A stretch of 64,000 nucleotides of DNA. Source: a phage. Position numbers and translations under genes: made by a program. The notes below the pieces were generated by a model, which saw nothing but the letters and a program-made list of their open reading frames with translations, had not been told where the DNA came from and ran no database searches. Positions 436 to 55,556 of this stretch are shown here, in pieces; positions within the stretch are counted from its first letter, which is position 1; every line of letters starts with the position of its first letter. Location of the stretch: assembly GCA_012646185.1 (NCBI GenBank), contig GCA_012646185.1_4706.1; one strand, given 5' to 3'.

Positions 436-1926
436 TTATTTTTTACTCGGACGATTCAATGCGGGTACCGGGTTCTTTGGTTGTTTTGTCTTTTCATCCA
501 TCCAGTACGGGAAGTACTCACCAGTACGCATACGCAATAAGTCCATTGTGGACAGGAACGGCAGCGGGTTAGGATCGTCCAAATACGTCCAGTAACCACG
601 CGTGTTTAACAATACATCCCAATCGAAACCTTTTGCTTTAAGATCGTCGTACAGTTCCTGTGGGGTGCAATACAGCTGTGGGTTTTCGTAAACCTCTTGA
701 CGCCAGAGATTATGCATCTGACACAGCTCCGACGTGATTTCCAGAGCGCGCTGTAAATACTCATCCTCTTCGCAAAGAGAACGAATGGTCGTACGCTGCA
801 ACGCAACATCCGGATAAATATCCAAATATACCGTTGAAGCACCATCAGCTGATTTACCACCTGACGCATGCATACCCCAACCACGCATCCAATCTTTATC
901 ACGCAGGTAGTGGTATTCTGTTAATGATGGTTTAACCCCTTCGCTCTGACTAACCACAATCGGGAACGGTAAGCCGGTGGGTCCGTTTTTAGCACGCATG
1001 TTGAAGACTTGAATCAACTGCAGATCGGTATCCCCGATAAGGTTGTCACCAGGCCCACGCGGATAAAGGACGCGTTTATCGGCGTTCTGAAGAATCGTCA
1101 GTTTATCGATTTTCCAGAGGTTATTCGTATAAAACGTGAAGCGTTCCGGGACGTTCTTAAACTTCTCATCGCCCTTAAACCCTTTCAGTTTTCGTACCGG
1201 CTGCTGTCCCGGCATACCACCGACGTTTACACCGTCACCAAGGTGGGCGGTCATGGTAATGTAGATACCCGCCGACGCTGTGAGTACTGGCATCTGTGAT
1301 AAAATCTGGCTTTTTGCTGCTGCTGAACGCATCGCTTCAGCATTCAGTTTTGCACCACCGGCGGTTTCTTTATCAAACAGTGCATCAACAGCATCGATTG
1401 GTAATCCAGAGAAACTGTCGATGAGTACAACGGTCGGCAACCACCAGGTATAGTTCTCACCATGTTTATTAATAAACGGAACGGCTTTGCGTTGAGATTT
1501 ATCTTTGACCTTGTCGTCACGGAATTTCTTAATCGCATCAAACCAAATGTTACCGCTCATCTGAACAGCATCGGTGATAAACACACGTTCTTCTTCGAAA
1601 AGATCGACACCTGCGATATTAGACATGTTCATCGCAAGCGTTAAGATACGTGTTGTCGTTAACGACATTTCTGTGTCGTAAACGCTACTATTGCTGTTTG
1701 CGTAACGATCGATAACGCGTAACAAGCGAAACATTATGAACGTGGTTTTGTTCATGTTGCCGCGAGCGCCTGCGCCCTCAACAAGCATCATGCCGCCGTT
1801 ACAAATGCTTTCACCGTGTTTACCGACATAGTACCGACCACCAGATGTGGGAATATCCATTAAGCAACCAATGTTGAGATTAAAACGCATCTCTTCACCA
1901 GGAGAAAGGTACTTATTAAGATTCAT
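436..1926 (-). CDS. UvsX/RecA-family recombinase-like ATPase (496 aa)
   Basis: RecA-fold motifs in UvsX-like order: GGMMLVEGAGARGNMNKTTF (P-loop with K-T but no G before K, as in T4 UvsX GPSKSFKS), YDTEMSL, Walker-B-like TVVLIDSFSGL; AAGGAG SD upstream of ATG; ~100-aa C-terminal extension of unknown function. Confidence 0.6.
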   Translation of the reverse strand: MNLNKYLSPGEEMRFNLNIGCLMDIPTSGGRYYVGKHGESICNGGMMLVEGAGARGNMNKTTFIMFRLLRVIDRYANSNSSVYDTEMSLTTTRILTLAMNMSNIAGVDLFEEERVFITDAVQMSGNIWFDAIKKFRDDKVKDKSQRKAVPFINKHGENYTWWLPTVVLIDSFSGLPIDAVDALFDKETAGGAKLNAEAMRSAAAKSQILSQMPVLTASAGIYITMTAHLGDGVNVGGMPGQQPVRKLKGFKGDEKFKNVPERFTFYTNNLWKIDKLTILQNADKRVLYPRGPGDNLIGDTDLQLIQVFNMRAKNGPTGLPFPIVVSQSEGVKPSLTEYHYLRDKDWMRGWGMHASGGKSADGASTVYLDIYPDVALQRTTIRSLCEEDEYLQRALEITSELCQMHNLWRQEVYENPQLYCTPQELYDDLKAKGFDWDVLLNTRGYWTYLDDPNPLPFLSTMDLLRMRTGEYFPYWMDEKTKQPKNPVPALNRPSKK

Positions 1927-2024: not shown

Positions 2025-2867
2025 ATGCATAAATTTACCATTCCTGAAGACCCGATTACACTGCAGACCCTTTGGGATTCACATCGTGCTTTATCAATGG
2101 AAGGCTTTGCGCAAGACTTCGCTTCACTTACCGCAGTAACGAACCTTCGTAGTATGTTTACTAACGGTAAGAAGTTCGTTACCGATTGGCTTAAAAAACG
2201 TGATGAGACGGTTTATCCTAAAGTCTTCGATGACCTCGACACCATCTTTAGCAACAACGCTTACAGCGATCTCATTGGGTATCGCGCTTTTATTCCGAAT
2301 GGTTTAAATGCGCCGATGTCAGATTATGTTGTTGCTTTAACCCAGAGTCTGGATAGCGTAATTGGCACCATCCTACCTGATTTGGATAAGTTGACCGTAA
2401 CGTGCGCTAAAGCCGTCAACGACGTTAACTTCCGCCGTAGTAGTGGTATGGCTCAAACGCTACCTAAAAACGATCCAGAGAACGTTCTAGAGACGTTACG
2501 TGCGATGTTCAAACAAGGGACGGTAACACAGACCACTGTAGGCCGTGCATATAAGAACGAAGACGATATTCGTCAGATCGGAAAAGATCTGGATGCTTCC
2601 CGTATCCGTGCGCTTGACGTTAATCCTAAAGACGTGAAGAAGGCAATCGAACGTTTCATGGAGGTGGCTGACCGTTTAACCGAAATCCTGGTTCAAGACT
2701 ACAACGAAGGTGCGGTGAGCAACGCGATGATTCGCGATATTAGCGACGCTATCTACCAAACAGCCAAGCAGGCTGAACTGTACGCGTTTCTCGTGAACGC
2801 TTTGGCTGAGGCGATCATCGCATATAACGATACCTGGGACGCCGTTAAAAAGAACGCGAAAAAATAA
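2025..2867 (+). CDS. hypothetical protein (280 aa)
   Basis: ATG preceded by GAGGA SD; followed by a strong hairpin. Confidence 0.6.
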   Translation: MHKFTIPEDPITLQTLWDSHRALSMEGFAQDFASLTAVTNLRSMFTNGKKFVTDWLKKRDETVYPKVFDDLDTIFSNNAYSDLIGYRAFIPNGLNAPMSDYVVALTQSLDSVIGTILPDLDKLTVTCAKAVNDVNFRRSSGMAQTLPKNDPENVLETLRAMFKQGTVTQTTVGRAYKNEDDIRQIGKDLDASRIRALDVNPKDVKKAIERFMEVADRLTEILVQDYNEGAVSNAMIRDISDAIYQTAKQAELYAFLVNALAEAIIAYNDTWDAVKKNAKK

Positions 2868-2875
2868 CATAATAA

Positions 2876-2911
2876 CCCACCCTACTACCCCGTTAAGGGC
2901 GGTAGGGTGGG
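2876..2911. terminator. GC-rich hairpin between convergent genes (CCCACCCTAC...GTAGGGTGGG)
   Basis: 10-bp perfect stem read directly from sequence, lying between the stops of the 2025..2867 and 2919..3350 genes. Confidence 0.55.
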
Positions 2912-2918
2912 ATAAGGT

Positions 2919-3350
2919 TTATTTGCCGTATAGTTGTACCACTCGTTGTGTCGTAGGAACGCAGACTCTTACCAGAAGCTTTTTAATCTCCTGACGAATC
3001 GTTGCTTTATCGTCATAATAAAGCCATGGCGGAACGCGTTGCATTATGCACTGCACGGCTTCATCGTAGTTCGTCGTCCCATTAAGTAACGTCTCACTAT
3101 CCAGATCTTTCCACGCAGTAATACCAAGTCGCGCAGCAAACATCAACGCTGAAACCGACTCAGCTATCTCCAATCGCTCATTCATATCCGCAAGACCTTT
3201 TAGCATGATGTAATTATCATCATGCTGATGTAAGGTGCCATACAAACTTCCGAAGAGAAGTATACGTTTAGCTTTTGCGGTTAAGAGGAACGATAGGAGA
3301 GCGTGTTTCAACGGTTGTTTCTCACGTTCTACCTGTTCGACCATCACCAT
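2919..3350 (-). CDS. hypothetical protein (143 aa)
   Basis: ATG with GGAG SD; 4 nt downstream of the RNase H gene stop. Confidence 0.55.
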   Translation of the reverse strand: MVMVEQVEREKQPLKHALLSFLLTAKAKRILLFGSLYGTLHQHDDNYIMLKGLADMNERLEIAESVSALMFAARLGITAWKDLDSETLLNGTTNYDEAVQCIMQRVPPWLYYDDKATIRQEIKKLLVRVCVPTTQRVVQLYGK

Positions 3351-3353
3351 TGA

Positions 3354-4880
3354 TTACTCCAACACATAACGTGGGTTACTGTATATGTTAGCCCATATAC
3401 CAACGTCGGCACCTGACTCAATAATCACGGCGAAACGAAACGCAACATCAGACTCACGATAAGTTACCGCGTACGCTTTCGTTTCCGGTGATGCTAAATA
3501 GCTCAAGTTCAGACGTTGAGGCAGGTCTAACCCCAAGGACATGGTACAAGACGTAACGCCCTGCTTATCGGGGTTCAGTCTGTAATTCACGTCCACCTTC
3601 AAGCTTTTCGTAACCTGCGTAATCGCACTATGCACTTTGGTAACCGTTTTGCCTTTCTTATCCTTTTCTGTTTCGAAAAGAACGTCGGTAATTTCGGTTA
3701 CAACCAGACGCGGTGTGGATTCGCGGTTAGCGTCAAGCCATTCATCCAGTAACGTCTTTAAGAAGTTCAAGGAATCAATTGCACGCCAAGCAAGGTTAGG
3801 CGGGTTGCACGCTTCCATTAAAATGGCTGTGTTCGATCCACCTAGCGGAAGATGCACGCTCTTACCGAGGCCTGTCGGACGCATCGTAAGATCGCACTCA
3901 CCCTCAAGAATATCGCGATGATATTGACGATGATGAAGGTTATCCGTGTATGCGATATACACTGACTCCGTTGTCCCATGCTCTAATACCCGAGATGCAT
4001 GCGTACGCATAATCTCAACAGCATCATCCGGCTTGCTTAGATAGATAACACTGTACGCACTATCGCTAATCCTTTTCCCTAACTCAAGACGTCCCTTGTT
4101 GTCTTTATCAGTGTTACCACCGAAATAGATGTAGCGGCCATCTTTCGCACGCTCTTGCTGCTGGTTGGTGGTAAAGTAGCAGCGTGAGAACGTAAAGAAC
4201 GGGCTTATTTCCGGTTCGGGGCTCCAATACCCCTTAGCCGGAAGTTCGCGGCGTATTTGGGTTCTTACAGCCCAGTCCTGGTTTTGTGACAGATATGTTC
4301 CACGCGTTGCCAGCATATCCGCACGTTCGTTACCAACATTGCCCTCATGTCCAGGAACGTAGCGCAGCGAAATATCGATAGCGTCACGCTTCGCATCCCT
4401 TATCGCGCTATCGAGTTTCCGCCACCGTTCCGCATTCATTAACGGTTTATTGTCGGATTTAACCCAGTTGTTCTCTCGCCAGTTAGCAAGATGGTTGGTG
4501 GCACCTACAACAACATATTGGCTGTCCGACAACAGCTGGATCCGTTTTGCCCCCTTTGCTTTTCCAAGTTCAATCGCACGTATTGCAGCATCCAACTCAG
4601 CCTGATTGTTCGTTACGTTGAAACCCAAAGCCTCTAACTCATCCACGTATTCCTTGGGTTCGACCAGCACAGCGTCTTTAGGAAAGTCGAGTTTAGGGTC
4701 AACATAACCGTATTGCGTTGGTTTGGGCTTCCCGCTTTTTGAGGGTTCCAAGGTGCCTTTTATTTCTTTCACCATATCGTAGGTGTAGCCGTGCACGCCA
4801 TAGCCACCATACCCACTCGATGTTGGACGGGATCCTCCATCGCAGTAGAAAACGGCACCAAGCTCAGTATTTCCTGCCAT
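3354..4880 (-). CDS. rnh: RNase HI-domain protein with ~300-aa C-terminal extension (508 aa from second ATG)
   Basis: N-terminal RNase HI catalytic motifs in canonical order: FYCDGGS (Asp), NNQAEL (Glu), LSDSQYV (Asp), GHEGNVGNERADMLA (His/Asp), with an insertion after strand 1; second in-frame ATG (4880) has GAGGT SD whereas the first ATG (4892) has none. Confidence 0.8.
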   Translation of the reverse strand: MAGNTELGAVFYCDGGSRPTSSGYGGYGVHGYTYDMVKEIKGTLEPSKSGKPKPTQYGYVDPKLDFPKDAVLVEPKEYVDELEALGFNVTNNQAELDAAIRAIELGKAKGAKRIQLLSDSQYVVVGATNHLANWRENNWVKSDNKPLMNAERWRKLDSAIRDAKRDAIDISLRYVPGHEGNVGNERADMLATRGTYLSQNQDWAVRTQIRRELPAKGYWSPEPEISPFFTFSRCYFTTNQQQERAKDGRYIYFGGNTDKDNKGRLELGKRISDSAYSVIYLSKPDDAVEIMRTHASRVLEHGTTESVYIAYTDNLHHRQYHRDILEGECDLTMRPTGLGKSVHLPLGGSNTAILMEACNPPNLAWRAIDSLNFLKTLLDEWLDANRESTPRLVVTEITDVLFETEKDKKGKTVTKVHSAITQVTKSLKVDVNYRLNPDKQGVTSCTMSLGLDLPQRLNLSYLASPETKAYAVTYRESDVAFRFAVIIESGADVGIWANIYSNPRYVLE

Positions 4881-4930
4881 TGTAAACCTCATTAATCATT
4901 GTCCGTATGATAGCCCAAAGTTGTACGGTA

Positions 4931-5482
4931 TTACCGATTACCGTCGGTTGACGTCGGTTGATCGCGATTGACTTTCATTGACCGCAGTTTTCCACCGTTA
5001 ATTACGCATTGATTGCGTTGTTTGGCGGAGGTCAGACTATTGCAGACGTAATAGGTATCGATAAAACGTTCAACGCGTTCTTGAAACTCCCTCTCGTCAA
5101 CTTTATCTTTTTCAAAGGTTCGTAACGCTCGATCAACCTCACCCTGGAGAATCCGGTTCTGTTCAACCATACTGTCGATTAAACGGCCTCGTACTTCGTT
5201 CGATGTGTAAAGTTGACGAATCAGTTCTCGGTTGGTGTCTCGCGCATAACGCAATGTTGCATTTTCCTGACGTAAACTACTCACGTCAGCCATCAAGGTA
5301 ATGATTTTTTCGCCAGCGAATAACGTCACGATACCCAATACGATGAAAAAGCCCGTAATCAAGAATATCGAGGACTGTCGAGCTCCATCTCGACGATAGC
5401 GTGTGGGCGGTCGCTTACTTCGCCGAAACAACTCGCGAAGAAAAGGGAAAAGCCAGGGCAACGCCTTGAGTGTAGTAAACAT
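4931..5482 (-). CDS. membrane-anchored coiled-coil protein (183 aa)
   Basis: Internal ATG with AAGGA SD chosen over the unsupported upstream start; hydrophobic segment IFLITGFFIVLGIVTLFAG followed by heptad-rich charged region. Confidence 0.5.
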   Translation of the reverse strand: MFTTLKALPWLFPFLRELFRRSKRPPTRYRRDGARQSSIFLITGFFIVLGIVTLFAGEKIITLMADVSSLRQENATLRYARDTNRELIRQLYTSNEVRGRLIDSMVEQNRILQGEVDRALRTFEKDKVDEREFQERVERFIDTYYVCNSLTSAKQRNQCVINGGKLRSMKVNRDQPTSTDGNR

Positions 5483-5536: not shown

Positions 5537-6877
5537 ATGATTAGTATTTTTGGTTTTTATACGTACAAAGGGTACGCTAATAACCACCCAAAAACCACGG
5601 CGAAATTCGGTGAGTTCAGTCAGCACAGTGCTACGTTCAGTCGCGAAATCGGCATCTATACCAACACGGCGTACGCACGTACGACCTTATTAGTGTTGAA
5701 TGCCGAAAACGAAGCTGGTGAAGCACAAACGCTGAATGACGACACCGCAGGCCGTATTCTTCAGGTTGGTCAATGGTTGCTGGAAAAAGCCGCATCGGGC
5801 GAAATCCAGGAAGACCGAGACCAGGTTATCAGTTACCTAAAAGACGACTTCACAACGTATCTGGATTCTATCGACATCCCAACACCCACCACCGATGGTA
5901 CAGTCTATCTACCGGCGTGGATCAGTTTCAAGATAACCGCCACCGGCGATGTCGTCAAGATTTGGTTGTCTGATAGCGTATTCCAAAGTCAATATCCAAA
6001 ATACGAATATGAAGTCGTTCCCCCTGTTCCTAAGGATCAGTTAGATACCTTCTTCGAAGATCTGGCAACATTGAAGAAACTGGTTGACAGTCGAAGCAGC
6101 GAGAAACTGACCGAAGAAATCAACGAGGTGCGCGACCAATTCCCAGACACACAATTGTGGACGAAAACCTATAAAGCGTACGATTACACCGACGATTCGA
6201 AATACATTAATACCGATTGGACGGTGATTATCTACGGTGCAGCAGGTAACAACATTGATAATATCAAGGAGTTCCTGCAAAACTGGATTCTTAGCAATAG
6301 TACGCATGGACGTCCAGACTGGGAAATCGTTCTGCCGGATCTTTTTATCCCGACAGAACACATCTTCATTCCAATCTGGAACCGCCACAGTGCGCCAGAA
6401 ATGACCAATCAGGCACGTATCTATAGTCCTATCTTCGATGATTCGTTGATGGATACCTACCTGAAAAACTTTGCTGATGGTTACGGCGAAACCGCCGAAG
6501 TCCGTAAATCGCTTCAAGCGGTGCCGACGTTGTGGCGCTCGATCGGTTTCTTAAGCGTTGGTAACTCACGTAACCGAGACGGTAAACTTAAGTTCTACGA
6601 TCGTTGGCCGCAATACGCGCTCATCAGCACAACCAGCATCGATATTAACCGTATCGATGATGCGACACGTGAATTCATCACGTTCACTTACGAAATGCTG
6701 AAACTGGCAGAATCGCTGACCGAAGACGACCCGGTACCGTTGGGTTATAGTCGTGTTACGCGTGGTAGCAATAGCTTCTTAGCGAAAAGCCACAACGATG
6801 TTCAGTATCTCTTCTTAACAAAAGAAGCGTTCCTGAAGAAAATGCCGGATGAAGCCGACACGCCTGTTGGAGGTTGA
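5537..6877 (+). CDS. hypothetical protein (446 aa)
   Basis: ATG at 5537 has GAGGA SD (the ATG at 5501 has none); stop lies 3 nt before the next gene start. Confidence 0.55.
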   Translation: MISIFGFYTYKGYANNHPKTTAKFGEFSQHSATFSREIGIYTNTAYARTTLLVLNAENEAGEAQTLNDDTAGRILQVGQWLLEKAASGEIQEDRDQVISYLKDDFTTYLDSIDIPTPTTDGTVYLPAWISFKITATGDVVKIWLSDSVFQSQYPKYEYEVVPPVPKDQLDTFFEDLATLKKLVDSRSSEKLTEEINEVRDQFPDTQLWTKTYKAYDYTDDSKYINTDWTVIIYGAAGNNIDNIKEFLQNWILSNSTHGRPDWEIVLPDLFIPTEHIFIPIWNRHSAPEMTNQARIYSPIFDDSLMDTYLKNFADGYGETAEVRKSLQAVPTLWRSIGFLSVGNSRNRDGKLKFYDRWPQYALISTTSIDINRIDDATREFITFTYEMLKLAESLTEDDPVPLGYSRVTRGSNSFLAKSHNDVQYLFLTKEAFLKKMPDEADTPVGG

Positions 6878-6879
6878 TT

Positions 6880-7506
6880 ATGGCTGTAACACGCATGACG
6901 CCAAGTCCCGGTGCGGTCGGGGTATTCACAGTATCAGCGCCGTTTACCGTTGGTGCGTCAACGCTATATACCGTTACAGCGTTGCGAAGATTCAGCGAAG
7001 TCATCGGTAGTGGAATCGATCTATTTGCGGAACTGTACGAACCGTTATCAATAGACAAATCCACATTCGAAGCGCATCTCGAAGCGAATGCTTATCTCGT
7101 CACGTTGCAACCGGATTACGGTGCACCCGTACTGGTACCTGATACGTATATCACGTCGTACCCAAAGAACGATTCCTTGCGGTATCGTCGCATTATTCTG
7201 GGTATCGATTTCGGGCCTCTTCCTCCCGGTCTTGACCTTTCGTATTTAACAACGATATTGAAAGGTAAGGCTAGTGATATTCTTGGTGTCGAACCTGAAG
7301 TTAAAACGATGGAAATCACTCTCGATGATACCGTTACTCAGGAACAACATCAGATAAACGAAGCCTGTCGTCAGGCTGCGATAAAAGAGCGGGATACCAT
7401 TTACGCACGCTGTGAAACGCAAGAGAAGCAGATAACGGCTTTACTTGCAACCCAAAAGCAACTTATTAAATTGCTTCAAGACGCCGGTATTAATCCGACA
7501 CCTTAA
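6880..7506 (+). CDS. hypothetical protein (208 aa)
   Basis: ATG with GGAGG SD embedded in the end of the upstream gene (the track start at 6874 is TTG). Confidence 0.55.
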   Translation: MAVTRMTPSPGAVGVFTVSAPFTVGASTLYTVTALRRFSEVIGSGIDLFAELYEPLSIDKSTFEAHLEANAYLVTLQPDYGAPVLVPDTYITSYPKNDSLRYRRIILGIDFGPLPPGLDLSYLTTILKGKASDILGVEPEVKTMEITLDDTVTQEQHQINEACRQAAIKERDTIYARCETQEKQITALLATQKQLIKLLQDAGINPTP

Positions 7507-7512
7507 CATATT

Positions 7513-7544
7513 CCCTCCTCCTTCCCTGTTGGGTTGGAGGAGGG
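7513..7544. terminator. conserved CT/GA hairpin (CCCTCCTCCTTCCC-TGTT-GGGTTGGAGGAGGG)
   Basis: Member of the intergenic hairpin family; lies between convergent genes. Confidence 0.6.
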
Positions 7545-7558
7545 TTATGCCGTCAAGC

Positions 7559-7602
7559 AAAAAAAAAAATGATAGTCACAGGCTCTCCAATGAAGGAGAG
7601 CC
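7559..7602 (-). terminator. hairpin GGCTCTCC-AATGA-GGAGAGCC plus T11 run on the minus strand
   Basis: Downstream of the 7615..8316 stop in minus orientation; the T-run starts ~11 nt after the stem, so this is a non-canonical intrinsic terminator at best. Confidence 0.4.
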
Positions 7603-47303: not shown

Positions 47304-49100
47304 TCAATCGATTATGTCGTGATCGTTAATTTCTACAATTTCTTCATCGAATCGACCGACGTCTTTCTTCAAGCCTGCATTGGTTGCTGCAACGTCATTT
47401 GCAATTTGTGGGGTAATGATTAACCGACCGCGCTCATCGATAGGTGCGTACATACTGAACTTCTGACGTCCGGTTGGTTCGGAGTGTGGAAGATTCAGAT
47501 AGCTTGCACAGAACGGGATGGAACCACTAACCAAACGACTCTCGTCAGCCAATGCAGCACCGCCTGCGTTTTGGCTCTGGAGAACAACATGCGTGCTCAC
47601 TTTGAACAGCATGCAATCACCAGGTGACTGAATCGATGTTGCCACTTTCTCACGTTTATCACGATTGCTCTGGATATTGAGAATCGCTTCCGTTGCAACT
47701 TGATTTCGCAACGCCTTCTGTACATCGCGATTGGTCATCTCTTTACGGTTGTTCTGTCGTTTACCACGTTCTGTGGTTTTAAGATGGAACCCCAGTTTAA
47801 AGATGCTCTTACGCACATCCTCCATGACATATTCCAACACCATCAATTCCTTACCGAACATCGTCGTGGTGTCAACACGACTCATTTCGATAGTGACATT
47901 GTCAATCAGATACGCCATAAATTCATAGAAGTCGTCGCAAGGAATATTTTCCTGTTTGAACTTCTTCTGCTGAATTTCGTCAACGTAAAGATCGAGACTG
48001 TCGATGTGGTGGTTTACATCACGCAACAAACGCGCATCCGCATTGTTGTTATTAAAGATAATCAAACCGAGTAATGTACGCCAATGGTCTGGCGCATTCG
48101 CGAACTCTTCAACCGGATAGTCTTCCGGAAAACGATCGTAATAACGGTCGATGAGATACAAGAATGCACCGACAAGGCCAAGAACAATACGTTCCGTGCC
48201 TCCACGTCTTACAGCAATTTGAATATCAGGATGTTTGTAACGTACAGCGCTAGCGCTACGGCTTTTACCGCTTTTGCTGATACTAAAGCCTTTAGGAATA
48301 ACCCCCATGGTGCGATAGATTACCCATTGGTCACGCGGAAAATCACGTTCAGCAAGGTTCCGTCCGGTTACGGCTTCGACACCTGCAAAACGTCGGAAAC
48401 ACTCACCCACCCCGTACTTCGCAAAGAGATAGTGACCCAGTGTGGTTACGCTGGTGTGGTTGATGTTGTCACCGTTCACTTTACTTTGTTTAGTAAGATG
48501 ATAGATTTGCGACCAGGGTAATGACAGGTAATGACGATAATCGATACCGGTCGGTGTATCGTTGCTCAGGAACTGATACGGTGTACGTTTAACCGTGATT
48601 TTGTCACGCGGAAGCATGATGAACGCCATGTCTTTCGTGTAACTGATTACGGGGTCAGCGAGTACCGCACTGAGAATGAAGTTCGCACCACGTAGACGCA
48701 TTTTACCACCCTGACCTACCGCGGGTAATAGGAGAGGATGTCGGATAATGCAGTAGTCCTTTCCGGGTTCACGACGGTCACCTGATTCCATCGCGCCGTA
48801 CCAGCGGAATTCTAGCATCACCATAAACACATCGGAAGGCGCAAGGTCGAAGGTCAGCTTACCGCTATCCTTCCCTTTGGTTTTCTTTCCTCCGCTTAAG
48901 TAGTGGAACTGTTCGCGGGCCATACAGCGACGCAGGCCATGATACACCAGATCCTTAGGTAAACTATCTTTGCTGTTCCGCCAAAGACGATCAACATAGG
49001 ACTCAACATCTTGCATCTTATCGACGACGATGTTGCGTGCTATCTTCTCGTTCATCTTCGGTGCAAGCTCAGCGACAGCTTTGCAGAATCTAGGATCCAT
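47304..49100 (-). CDS. hypothetical protein (598 aa)
   Basis: ATG with AAGGAG SD (track start 49103 is GTG). Confidence 0.6.
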   Translation of the reverse strand: MDPRFCKAVAELAPKMNEKIARNIVVDKMQDVESYVDRLWRNSKDSLPKDLVYHGLRRCMAREQFHYLSGGKKTKGKDSGKLTFDLAPSDVFMVMLEFRWYGAMESGDRREPGKDYCIIRHPLLLPAVGQGGKMRLRGANFILSAVLADPVISYTKDMAFIMLPRDKITVKRTPYQFLSNDTPTGIDYRHYLSLPWSQIYHLTKQSKVNGDNINHTSVTTLGHYLFAKYGVGECFRRFAGVEAVTGRNLAERDFPRDQWVIYRTMGVIPKGFSISKSGKSRSASAVRYKHPDIQIAVRRGGTERIVLGLVGAFLYLIDRYYDRFPEDYPVEEFANAPDHWRTLLGLIIFNNNNADARLLRDVNHHIDSLDLYVDEIQQKKFKQENIPCDDFYEFMAYLIDNVTIEMSRVDTTTMFGKELMVLEYVMEDVRKSIFKLGFHLKTTERGKRQNNRKEMTNRDVQKALRNQVATEAILNIQSNRDKREKVATSIQSPGDCMLFKVSTHVVLQSQNAGGAALADESRLVSGSIPFCASYLNLPHSEPTGRQKFSMYAPIDERGRLIITPQIANDVAATNAGLKKDVGRFDEEIVEINDHDIID

Positions 49101-49139
49101 CACACACTCCTTTCAGAAAGTTGCTTAAGCAGATTAAAG

Positions 49140-53285: not shown

Positions 53286-53906
53286 TCACAAACGACGCAG
53301 GCGATAATGGATGGAACGATTGGTGCAATATGAACGGAACAGCGGCAATTGCGCAACTTCCGCAAGACTCATATTAATTCGCAGGTGTTCAATAACGGCG
53401 CTGTAGTTATCAGCAATACGATCGCTCAATAACTCTTCTGCCAATAAAGGAAGACAATCGACAACAATCGCGATCACATCCTCATTAACATAACGCACCC
53501 GAACACTCAGCGGACGTTTGTCTGGGCTGTAAGTTGGATCCGCCAAACGACGTTCAATATCACGCGGATAGCTCGTCAGTAAATGGTAATAACCATTGTC
53601 ATAACGATTGATGTACTCACACAGCACATCAACATTCTTCTCTGGCGGCAAACCTGTTTCGTCATAGTGATACGCAAACATACCACCAAGCAGGTTGTTA
53701 AGATGAACCGCAGGGTTCGCTTGTTCGTGTTCTTTCGTGATGAAGAAAGGCACGTTCTGGGCTGCGAAATAAAAACCTACATCATTGGGCGATAGTATGC
53801 CGAAAAGACTTTTAGGGTCTAATAACACCTGTAAGTCATCACGCGCATTTCGAATAATCGCGTGTTCTACCCAATTCGGAACGACGAGATATCGGAGTTC
53901 CTTCAT
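53286..53906 (-). CDS. hypothetical protein (206 aa)
   Basis: ATG with AGAGGT SD; divergent from the 53946 gene. Confidence 0.55.
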   Translation of the reverse strand: MKELRYLVVPNWVEHAIIRNARDDLQVLLDPKSLFGILSPNDVGFYFAAQNVPFFITKEHEQANPAVHLNNLLGGMFAYHYDETGLPPEKNVDVLCEYINRYDNGYYHLLTSYPRDIERRLADPTYSPDKRPLSVRVRYVNEDVIAIVVDCLPLLAEELLSDRIADNYSAVIEHLRINMSLAEVAQLPLFRSYCTNRSIHYRLRRL

Positions 53907-53945
53907 TATGATTACCTCTTTGCAAGTATCGAAAGGATTGAGTCG

Positions 53946-55556
53946 ATGGACCCAAAACAGATAGCCATTAAGATTATTACGTTACTGTTTCGTAATGCAC
54001 AATTGAACCATCCCGATCCCAGTACGATCGAACATGTTAAATCCGTCTTAGATAAAGTCGAACCCCCGAAAAACCATCTCGCTACAGACGTAGATAGAGA
54101 GGTTTTCAACAACCTGATGAATACCATTCATTGGATGTTGGAACAACCATTATCGGAACCTTTCGATAAACAACAGTTGTTACAAAGGATACGTTTGGAT
54201 TGCCTTGAACAAAGCAATCTTTACGAGATTCTTGCCGACGGACTGTACGATATCGAAGACGACGCTCATATCAGTAAGGTCTGTTCGCTCTATTACAATG
54301 AATTACGTAATCTGATTACCCGGCGTCGTGTTTTCGAAACCTTTAAAAACACGTACATGGATATCAGTAACGGGCGACTTGGGGATAAAGAATTTTTCGA
54401 TGCGATGGCGAATCTGAAATTATCGCTAGACAGTATCGAAATGGATACCGAAAATCCCGAAGAGATGTCGTGTATGATTGACGGCTTTATCGCTGACAGC
54501 GAAGACGATATCGAGAAAGTTGAACGTATGTTCGTCAAAGCGATGGAACGTAACAGTCCTGAAGGTGGATTTGTAACCGGCTGGCAAGGCTTTAATAAAA
54601 TGTTGGGGTCGGTCGGCGTTTTACGTCGCGGTACCTTAGGACTGATTGGTGCAATGCAGCACCGGAACAAGTCAGGCGTGTTGTTAAAACTGTTCACACA
54701 TCTGGCATTGTACAACAAACCCCATTTCTTTTTCCCAGAGCGAGCAAAGAAAGCATTACTGATTCATTTGTCGACAGAAAACGAAGTGGAAGAAAACACG
54801 CTTCAGATATACAAGAACATGCGAGAACAGGAAACGGGCGAATATGTCGATATTCGTAAGATTGACCCTCGCGAGGCATCACGTTATGTGTTGAAGGTGT
54901 TCAACGATGCGGGTTTCTCTGTTTGTATGCGTCGTGTTGATGGGATGAGTTATAAACAACTCGCTAATCTCATCGACCATTTCGAACGCATGGGTTATGA
55001 AGTCATGGCGTTGTTCATTGACTATCTGAAAATGTTCTCATCGGAAGGGTTGGATAGAAATGGACCGACCGGCGCATGGCTCCAAGAACTCTTCAACAAA
55101 GTCCGTAACCTCTGCAGCGTTAAACGTATTTTAGGTATGACGGTACACCAGCTGTCATCCGATGCGAAGATGCGTGCGCGTGATGGTAACGATGAAGAGT
55201 TTGTTGACCAGGTCGCAGGTTTAAGTTACTGGGATGGTTGTAAAGGGATCGACCGTGAGATTGACCTTGAGGTGATTGTTGATATCGTTAAGGAGCCGGG
55301 CAAACGTCAAAGTTGGCAGGTCTTTGCGTTAGGGAAAGACCGTCAACCGGATAACGGTTCAACGAAACCTGAAGACAAACATTTCGCGATGCCATTCCAA
55401 ACCATCGGGATGCTTCCTGATGATTACGGTAAGAAAGCAGTATACTGCCGCAAGGTTGGCGGACAACCTGTCTCCGAGGGAGGTAAAGGTCCGTGGAACA
55501 AGTTCGATGAAAACGCAGCACCGAGTAATGAATTACAATTTGATTTAGAATTTTAA
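53946..55556 (+). CDS. hypothetical protein (536 aa)
   Basis: First ATG (53946) has AAAGGA SD; track start 53862 is GTG and would overlap the divergent gene. Confidence 0.55.
   Translation: MDPKQIAIKIITLLFRNAQLNHPDPSTIEHVKSVLDKVEPPKNHLATDVDREVFNNLMNTIHWMLEQPLSEPFDKQQLLQRIRLDCLEQSNLYEILADGLYDIEDDAHISKVCSLYYNELRNLITRRRVFETFKNTYMDISNGRLGDKEFFDAMANLKLSLDSIEMDTENPEEMSCMIDGFIADSEDDIEKVERMFVKAMERNSPEGGFVTGWQGFNKMLGSVGVLRRGTLGLIGAMQHRNKSGVLLKLFTHLALYNKPHFFFPERAKKALLIHLSTENEVEENTLQIYKNMREQETGEYVDIRKIDPREASRYVLKVFNDAGFSVCMRRVDGMSYKQLANLIDHFERMGYEVMALFIDYLKMFSSEGLDRNGPTGAWLQELFNKVRNLCSVKRILGMTVHQLSSDAKMRARDGNDEEFVDQVAGLSYWDGCKGIDREIDLEVIVDIVKEPGKRQSWQVFALGKDRQPDNGSTKPEDKHFAMPFQTIGMLPDDYGKKAVYCRKVGGQPVSEGGKGPWNKFDENAAPSNELQFDLEF

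Follow-up and report, generated by a model that had tools for sequence, protein, structure and literature searches.

An RNase H-clamp (Rhc) gene in a phage locus closely related to Escherichia phage Goslar

Rhc proteins of nucleus-forming phages and the gene at this locus

The closest described counterparts of the gene analyzed here come from nucleus-forming phages. PhiKZ155 is encoded by a core gene of these phages and localizes to the phage nucleus (Gerovac et al., Nature 2025, PMC12571901). Neither nucleus maturation nor genome amplification can do without it; upon its loss genome amplification stops and nucleus-dependent transcription goes on (PMC12571901). In vitro PhiKZ155 cuts as an RNase H, the exchange D102N abolishes this activity, and the D102N protein, inactive in vitro, fully complements an antisense knock-down (PMC12571901). 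PhiKZ has another RNase H, gp199 (PMC12571901). Here, we describe the orthologous gene in a stretch of 64,000 nucleotides of phage DNA (GenBank assembly GCA_012646185.1, contig GCA_012646185.1_4706.1; the whole stretch is referred to as the window), where it occupies positions 3354..4880 of the minus strand.

The name RNase H-clamp (Rhc) originates from two bioRxiv preprints of October 2026, one on Goslar (10.64898/2026.10.01.755736, PMC13648698) and one on PhiKZ (10.64898/2026.09.30.755723, PMC13648687), which are cited here for those portions of their text that were available. Rhc of Goslar is reported to be essential and to form, as the third subunit, a polymerase with DNAP-N and DNAP-C, of which it binds the latter; both of its domains are described as needed, and replication and productive infection as dependent on its catalytic activity (PMC13648698). 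Goslar Rhc is also reported to support late transcription, in a pattern that suggests R-loop resolution (PMC13648698). For PhiKZ, cryo-electron microscopy (cryo-EM) of DNAP-N/DNAP-C/Rhc is reported to reveal a single clamp-derived subunit which, together with the polymerase thumb, holds the emerging duplex (PMC13648687). The RNase H domain is described as flexibly linked and placed to degrade RNA on the incoming template, and primer extension as strongly boosted by Rhc (PMC13648687). According to the available text of the same preprint, no primase has been identified and no clamp has been reported in chimalliviruses (PMC13648687).

The gene in the window is the already described Rhc. Its DNA is 98.1% identical to that of Escherichia phage Goslar at the locus and about 96% identical over 21 kb further on, i.e. 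the two phage genomes are closely related and not identical (96-98%). The protein shares 506 of 508 residues (99.6%) with Goslar gp246 (Goslar_00246), which is encoded at the same locus in the same operon, and differs from it by two substitutions in the clamp-like domain, N436T and A491D (508 numbering, explained below). End-to-end alignment with PhiKZ gp155 (PHIKZ155) gave 26% identity over 507 residues (E=1e-47). With an RNase HI domain, a following domain of ~300 aa and homology over its full length, the protein belongs to the Rhc/PhiKZ155 family, and the window contains the chimallivirus gene block, as seen from its identity to Goslar and from homologues of PHIKZ123, PHIKZ152 and PHIKZ154 in syntenic order. 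This family was characterized beforehand, genetically, biochemically and structurally (Nature 2025 and, in the parts available, the two preprints), and the gene is no new entity. A preliminary description of the stretch, made from its letters alone, had pointed out the fusion of RNase HI to a large second domain and proposed that it might couple cleavage of RNA:DNA hybrids to a partner protein. This observation is correct and no longer new, and coupling of this kind has meanwhile been published, with Rhc placed on the phage DNA polymerase and linked to replication and R-loops in the available text of the preprints (PMC13648698, PMC13648687). The main point left is whether the nuclease is essential, on which the PhiKZ and Goslar reports, the latter as far as available, disagree.

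In the list of open reading frames (ORFs), the locus is covered by a single long minus-strand ORF, 3354..4892 (512 aa), in which the ATG at 4880 is the second in frame and the ATG at 4892 an alternative start. Because a GAGG precedes the ATG at 4880 and both the Goslar annotation and a 100%-identical database protein (P0001) comprise 508 aa, 3354..4880 is the likelier gene. The same limits had been given in the preliminary description, from which the strand was missing. Residue numbers of the 508-aa form plus 4 yield those of the 512-aa form, and the numbering used is indicated throughout.

Domain architecture and conservation of the protein

Judged by its sequence, the N-terminal domain is a genuine type-1 RNase H with an intact active site. 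Pfam PF00075 matched this domain with 90.1 bits (cut-off 25.8 bits; E=1.9e-25), PHROG 531 'RNase H' matched with E=3e-27, and in PDB sequence searches the domain hit bacterial RNase HI and human RNase H1 with E values of about 1e-16. The active-site motifs YCDGGS, TNNQAEL, LSDSQYV and GHEGNVGNERADMLA are all present and in order, as had been noticed earlier. In HMMER alignments D14, which lies within YCDGGS, E95, D119, H178 and D188 (508 numbering) were aligned to D10, E48, D70, H124 and D134 of E. coli RNase HI, and the catalytic set was also aligned to that of the Shewanella enzyme. D102 of PhiKZ155, the residue exchanged in the inactive variant, corresponds to D119 (D123 in 512 numbering). 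A counterpart of the E. coli basic protrusion segment is present and aligns without gaps. The domain has the RNase H fold, and the Pfam score together with the catalytic residues aligned to E. coli bears out its earlier assignment to the type-1 enzymes and not to the FEN-type nuclease of T4.

An insertion in the beta2-beta3 hairpin (Table 1), which had been missed in the preliminary description, is specific to the family. The spacing between the first catalytic Asp and the Glu is 81 residues, compared to 38 in E. coli RNase HI. In the family alignments a Gly-Tyr pair of the insertion is near-invariant (G62/Y63 in 512 numbering, conserved at >=90%), as is a His in beta2 of the RNase H domain. 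In the AlphaFold2 (AF2) model the insertion is flanked by the long strands 26-44 and 76-94, with predicted local distance difference test (pLDDT) values of 82-91.

For the C-terminal domain, sequence searches were uninformative. Pfam assigned no family to the C-terminal 312 aa (residues 201-512), returning only a noise match to DUF6647 (E=0.11), and nothing meaningful came up when PDB sequences were queried with the domain alone or with a profile of 19 sequences. The AF2 models of the protein were confident and folded the domain into two alpha/beta subdomains, in each of which a pair of helices packs against beta-sheet. When the fold of the domain was searched, the top scores were obtained with Hus1 (6.6), Ddc1 (5.9), Rad1 (5.4), Rad17 (5.3), Rad9 (5.3), the African swine fever virus (ASFV) clamp (5.1) and T4 gp45 (4.8); next below stood beta-clamps, PCNAs and the herpesvirus processivity factors UL44, PF-8 and UL42. 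In a search with the full-length model the same clamp proteins appeared just under the RNase H matches. The top ranks in Foldseek were likewise mostly PCNA, 9-1-1 and beta-clamp proteins, yet only with E values of at least 5e-3 and template modeling (TM) scores of about 0.25. Taken by itself, this predicted clamp-like fold is consistent across two methods and weak in absolute terms. Conserved basic residues (512 numbering) are located on three of the four helices (R296, R370, R460) and in adjacent loops (K273, R274, K415, K419, R486), and K472 is conserved as well; in the model, this arrangement would fit a DNA-facing surface. The domain had been introduced as uncharacterised and devoid of any recognised motif. 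The latter agrees with the empty Pfam and PDB sequence searches; the former does not stand, as a clamp-like domain fused to RNase HI has already been described for this region and the fold searches agree with it.

The large appended domain is conserved, and so is the fusion. PHROG 3265 covers residues 10-508 of the protein (E=2.7e-102), and tblastn with the C-terminal part alone retrieved 230 jumbo-phage records, all from genomes of 210-320 kb. With a profile of the C-terminal domain, 1.84 billion proteins yielded 1,141 representative clusters, in which it makes up, with few exceptions, the last ~285 residues of a protein of 480-550 aa and nearly always stands behind an RNase H. For a census of the catalytic residues 150 family members were aligned, in 144 of which the alignment extended over the N-terminal RNase H region. 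The full D-E-D-H-D pentad was kept in 139 of these 144 relatives (97%), indicating strong purifying selection for catalysis. The clamp-like domain was retained throughout the census, even where catalysis was lost. As an example of a nuclease-dead relative, one sequence carries N-E-S-S-T in place of D-E-D-H-D; such natural variants bear on the disagreement between PhiKZ and Goslar over the need for catalysis.

Short relatives of 290-361 aa were considered as possible stand-alone clamp-domain proteins. Four of them (P0036, P0058, P0063 and P0078, 321-361 aa) start partway through the RNase H domain, of which the last His and Asp are kept, and thus look like truncated contigs or split genes; in the other two, P0141 and P0142, the alignment is empty at the catalytic positions of the RNase H. 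Four other relatives, P0061, P0065, P0070 and P0160, carry an in-frame N-terminal extension of ~175-190 aa, which in the three that were aligned (P0061, P0065 and P0070) precedes a complete RNase H-clamp. The region before the RNase H matches a GIY-YIG nuclease and/or an I-TevI-type DNA-binding domain in P0065, P0070 and P0160, and the extension of P0061 has a similar sequence motif and no Pfam match. The 678-aa ORF of P0070 is present on four contigs (locus L004, 3001..5037). From these matches, the extension looks like a homing-endonuclease module that was fused to, or landed on, rhc.

Proposed function and alternative explanations

We consider it very probable that Rhc is an RNase HI joined to a diverged clamp protomer that docks on a split B-family DNA polymerase. 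The N-terminal RNase HI would cut the RNA strand of RNA:DNA hybrids, and the C-terminal ~300 aa would represent a highly diverged, single clamp protomer that forms no ring. One copy of Rhc would dock on the C-terminal subunit (DNAP-C) of the polymerase formed by DNAP-N and DNAP-C, where Rhc and the polymerase thumb would grip the DNA duplex as it emerges from the active site and thereby boost synthesis. The tethered RNase H would be held at the replisome in the phage nucleus and would clear template-annealed RNA such as primers, transcripts and R-loops. Separately, Rhc may aid late transcription via R-loop resolution. To this scheme the window contributes the gene and its orthology, the two domains with an intact active site and a predicted clamp-like fold, and the conservation of the fusion. 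RNase H activity, essentiality, polymerase binding, the single-subunit grip on DNA and the R-loop phenotype are taken from the literature cited above, in part from preprints available in portions. Being two residues off Goslar gp246, the protein encoded in the window would be expected to behave identically.

Several points weigh against this assignment. Neither DNAP-N nor DNAP-C genes were found in the 64-kb window among the large ORFs that were scanned against PHROG and Pfam. The Pfam and PDB searches gave no sequence-level link of the C-terminal domain to any clamp family, and when the halves of the domain were compared by HHalign, no internal repeat was detected (probability 0.1%). The two Rhc reports, as they stand, are preprints and not peer-reviewed. 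Three full-length relatives (P0018, P0028 and P0071) are without most of the catalytic residues and keep the clamp-like domain. Finally, the reports conflict on the need for catalysis, since PhiKZ155 D102N complements (PMC12571901) whereas Goslar is reported to require the activity (PMC13648698). The last two points touch on the question whether the essential role of the protein is independent of its nuclease, with the clamp-like domain and the RNase H fold, as a hybrid-binding 'sensor' or scaffold, licensing amplification and nucleus maturation while cleavage is dispensable. Given that the pentad is intact in 139 of the 144 relatives and that Goslar, with a 99.6% identical protein, is reported to need catalysis (PMC13648698), we regard this as unlikely, even though it would account for the complementation of the knock-down by a protein that is dead in vitro (PMC12571901), for the loss of most catalytic residues in the three relatives and for the single substitutions in the pentad of P0133 and P0140. 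In PhiKZ, gp199 might mask a defect of D102N. Catalysis that is strongly selected and occasionally dispensed with would fit a clamp or polymerase function as the universal core of the family, the nuclease being important and replaceable in some contexts.

The RNase H could also make primers, by trimming R-loops or transcripts made by the phage RNA polymerase into RNA primers with a 3'-OH that are passed to the docked polymerase and replace a primase. Such priming would account for the missing primase and for Rhc being tied to both transcription and amplification, and the insertion in the beta2-beta3 hairpin with its Gly-Tyr could then position the hybrid. It is in line with the available text of the preprints, in which no primase is identified in chimalliviruses (PMC13648687) and Rhc is physically bound to the polymerase and connected with R-loops and with transcription (PMC13648698, PMC13648687), and with the block of amplification under continuing nucleus-dependent transcription after loss of PhiKZ155 (PMC12571901). 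The RNase H of PhiKZ is reported to be sited at the incoming template and not at the primer terminus (PMC13648687), and complementation by D102N speaks against obligatory catalysis, at least in PhiKZ (PMC12571901); we therefore judge primer-making to be distinctly less likely still. A clamp that forms a ring as a dimer or trimer, is loaded on DNA and carries the RNase H along might be expected from the best fold matches, 9-1-1, PCNA, gp45 and beta-clamp, all of which are ring formers. It is very improbable in view of the single Rhc beside the thumb in the PhiKZ cryo-EM structure and of the statement, in the available text, that no clamp is reported in these phages (PMC13648687). The TM score of about 0.25 suggests a remodelled geometry, monomeric herpesvirus factors match about equally well, and no clamp-loader-like annotation was seen among the window ORFs and the parts of the Goslar record that were viewed, no search having been aimed at loaders. 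The least credible of the alternatives is an anti-defence factor, whose RNase H would destroy guide RNA:DNA hybrids of the host or other immune intermediates and whose additional domain would serve in targeting. Interference with host nucleic-acid-based immunity had been suggested in the preliminary description only, and apart from the nuclear location of the protein (PMC12571901) nothing was found to support it, libraries of defence and anti-defence genes not having been scanned. Rhc belongs to a conserved replication core, its knock-down leads to arrest of replication and nucleus maturation (PMC12571901; PMC13648698, in the available text), and it is reported to bind the polymerase (PMC13648698, PMC13648687).

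As a polymerase-docked protein, Rhc would bring an RNase HI fused to a diverged clamp protomer into a three-subunit, split B-family polymerase that works in a protein-walled 'nucleus', and would provide a bacterial virus with a loader-free processivity factor, parallel to UL42/UL44 of herpesviruses. The family makes it testable whether cleavage is essential, what role the hairpin insertion plays and where primers originate in chimalliviruses.

Genomic neighborhood and comparison with known systems

The features of the window are compiled in Table 1. Downstream of rhc, the 143-aa gene matched PHROG 9853 and, in BLASTP, PHIKZ154 (E=2e-8); in PhiKZ, PhiKZ155 is co-transcribed with 154, 156 and 156.1 (PMC12571901). 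The 183-aa gene upstream is probably part of the same transcription unit as rhc. It had no match in Pfam or PHROG, and similarity to PHIKZ156, which has the equivalent position in PhiKZ, was undetectable. Its product contains a hydrophobic stretch, SSIFLITGFFIVLGIVTLFAG, followed by a charged region; by its composition, the stretch is a possible membrane helix. Two genes downstream of rhc, within the conserved block, lies the gene of a RecA-like recombinase, which is annotated as "hypothetical" in Goslar and matches PHROG 97 (UvsX-like recombinase).

Table 1. Coordinates of rhc, its parts and further features in the window.
Feature	Position	Strand	Remarks
rhc gene (RNase H-clamp)	3354..4880	minus	508 aa + stop codon 3354..3356; orthologue of Goslar gp246 / PhiKZ gp155
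GAGG Shine-Dalgarno	4887..4890	minus	6 nt upstream of ATG at 4880; read from sequence
Type-1 RNase H (RNase HI) domain	4278..4880	minus	residues 1-201 (508 numbering)
Family-specific beta2-beta3 hairpin insertion	4668..4760	minus	~30-40 aa; residues ~41-71 (508 numbering)
C-terminal sliding-clamp-like domain (predicted)	3357..4277	minus	residues 202-508 (508 numbering)
Downstream gene, PHIKZ154 homologue	2919..3350	minus	143 aa; start codon 3 nt after rhc stop
Upstream gene, Goslar gp247 equivalent	4931..5482	minus	183 aa; ORF list and Goslar annotation
Hairpin at rhc operon end	2876..2911	minus	between convergent genes 2025..2867 (+) and 2919..3350 (-)
UvsX/RecA-like gene, PHIKZ152 homologue, Goslar gp243	436..1926	minus	496 aa; 38% identity, E=1e-104
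Divergent DnaB-like replicative helicase	53862..55556	plus	Pfam PF20307 divDNAB E=1.6e-120; PHROG 3213

The hairpin that closes the rhc operon probably terminates transcription in both directions. Its predicted RNA fold has -28.4 kcal/mol (z=-4.1), none of 200 shuffled sequences was equally stable, and the equivalent position is annotated as a terminator in Goslar. A simple terminator scan missed it, presumably because the required T-run is absent after it. Scans for sigma-70 promoters and intrinsic terminators around rhc performed no better than on shuffled sequence, as is expected because the phage uses its own RNA polymerases.

Among the remaining genes of the window, the ORF 47304..49103 (minus strand) was tried as a DNA polymerase and rejected, since its product is homologous to PHIKZ123, which is one of the subunits of the non-virion RNA polymerase (PDB 7ogp_E, E=5.8e-41). 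Goslar (gp039) and PHROG 2943 label this ORF just 'polymerase', a name that is easily misread. The 480-aa ORF adjoining it had no informative match. In the DnaB-like helicase the first ~180 residues lie outside the Pfam domain, and because no primase has been identified in these phages, as far as the available text goes, this N-terminal part may merit a look. The window continues without a break over the point where the linear Goslar record ends and begins: positions 6500-7569 of the window correspond to 236233-237302 of Goslar, and position 1 of Goslar maps to ~7520. A sequence of ~50 bp (~7520..7569) stands at either end of that record and once in the window; this duplication is probably an assembly overlap or results from arbitrary linearization of a circularly permuted genome.

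PhiKZ gp155 (Nlp2) and the PhiPA3 homologue have the same two-domain architecture as the protein studied here, and PhiKZ gp155 is collinear with it over its full length, the identity in the clamp-like domain being only 21%. Gene order is conserved as well, with PHIKZ154 and PHIKZ152 homologues near rhc, and differs in the upstream gene, which is not recognizably related to PHIKZ156. Compared to E. coli RNase HI and human RNase H1, Rhc has the insertion of ~40 aa between beta2 and beta3 and the C-terminal extension of 300 aa, and the hybrid-binding domain of human RNase H1 is absent from it.

Rhc would work as a processivity factor and should not be classed with the canonical ring clamps, because its C-terminal domain matched no clamp family in the Pfam and PDB sequence searches and because the PhiKZ structure, in the part of the preprint available, contradicts a ring. 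The best structural matches to its C-terminal domain are nonetheless PCNA, 9-1-1, beta-clamp and T4 gp45. PCNA:RNase HII (PDB 3p83) and similar complexes follow the same logic as Rhc, with a clamp of the replisome serving as the tether of an RNase H or FEN. Ring clamps recruit their nucleases through short peptide motifs, whereas in Rhc a covalent fusion joins the type-1 RNase H to what would be one diverged protomer. Clamps of cells and phages are closed rings that need a loader. A herpesvirus factor of the type of UL42 from herpes simplex virus (HSV) is understood to act loader-free and bound to its polymerase, and UL44 of human cytomegalovirus (HCMV) and PF-8 of Kaposi's sarcoma-associated herpesvirus (KSHV) act as dimers. 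UL42, UL44 and PF-8 are proteins of eukaryotic viruses, have no detectable sequence relationship to Rhc and carry no fused nuclease. By analogy of function, Rhc may be likened most closely to a processivity factor of the UL42 type to which an RNase H has been tethered.

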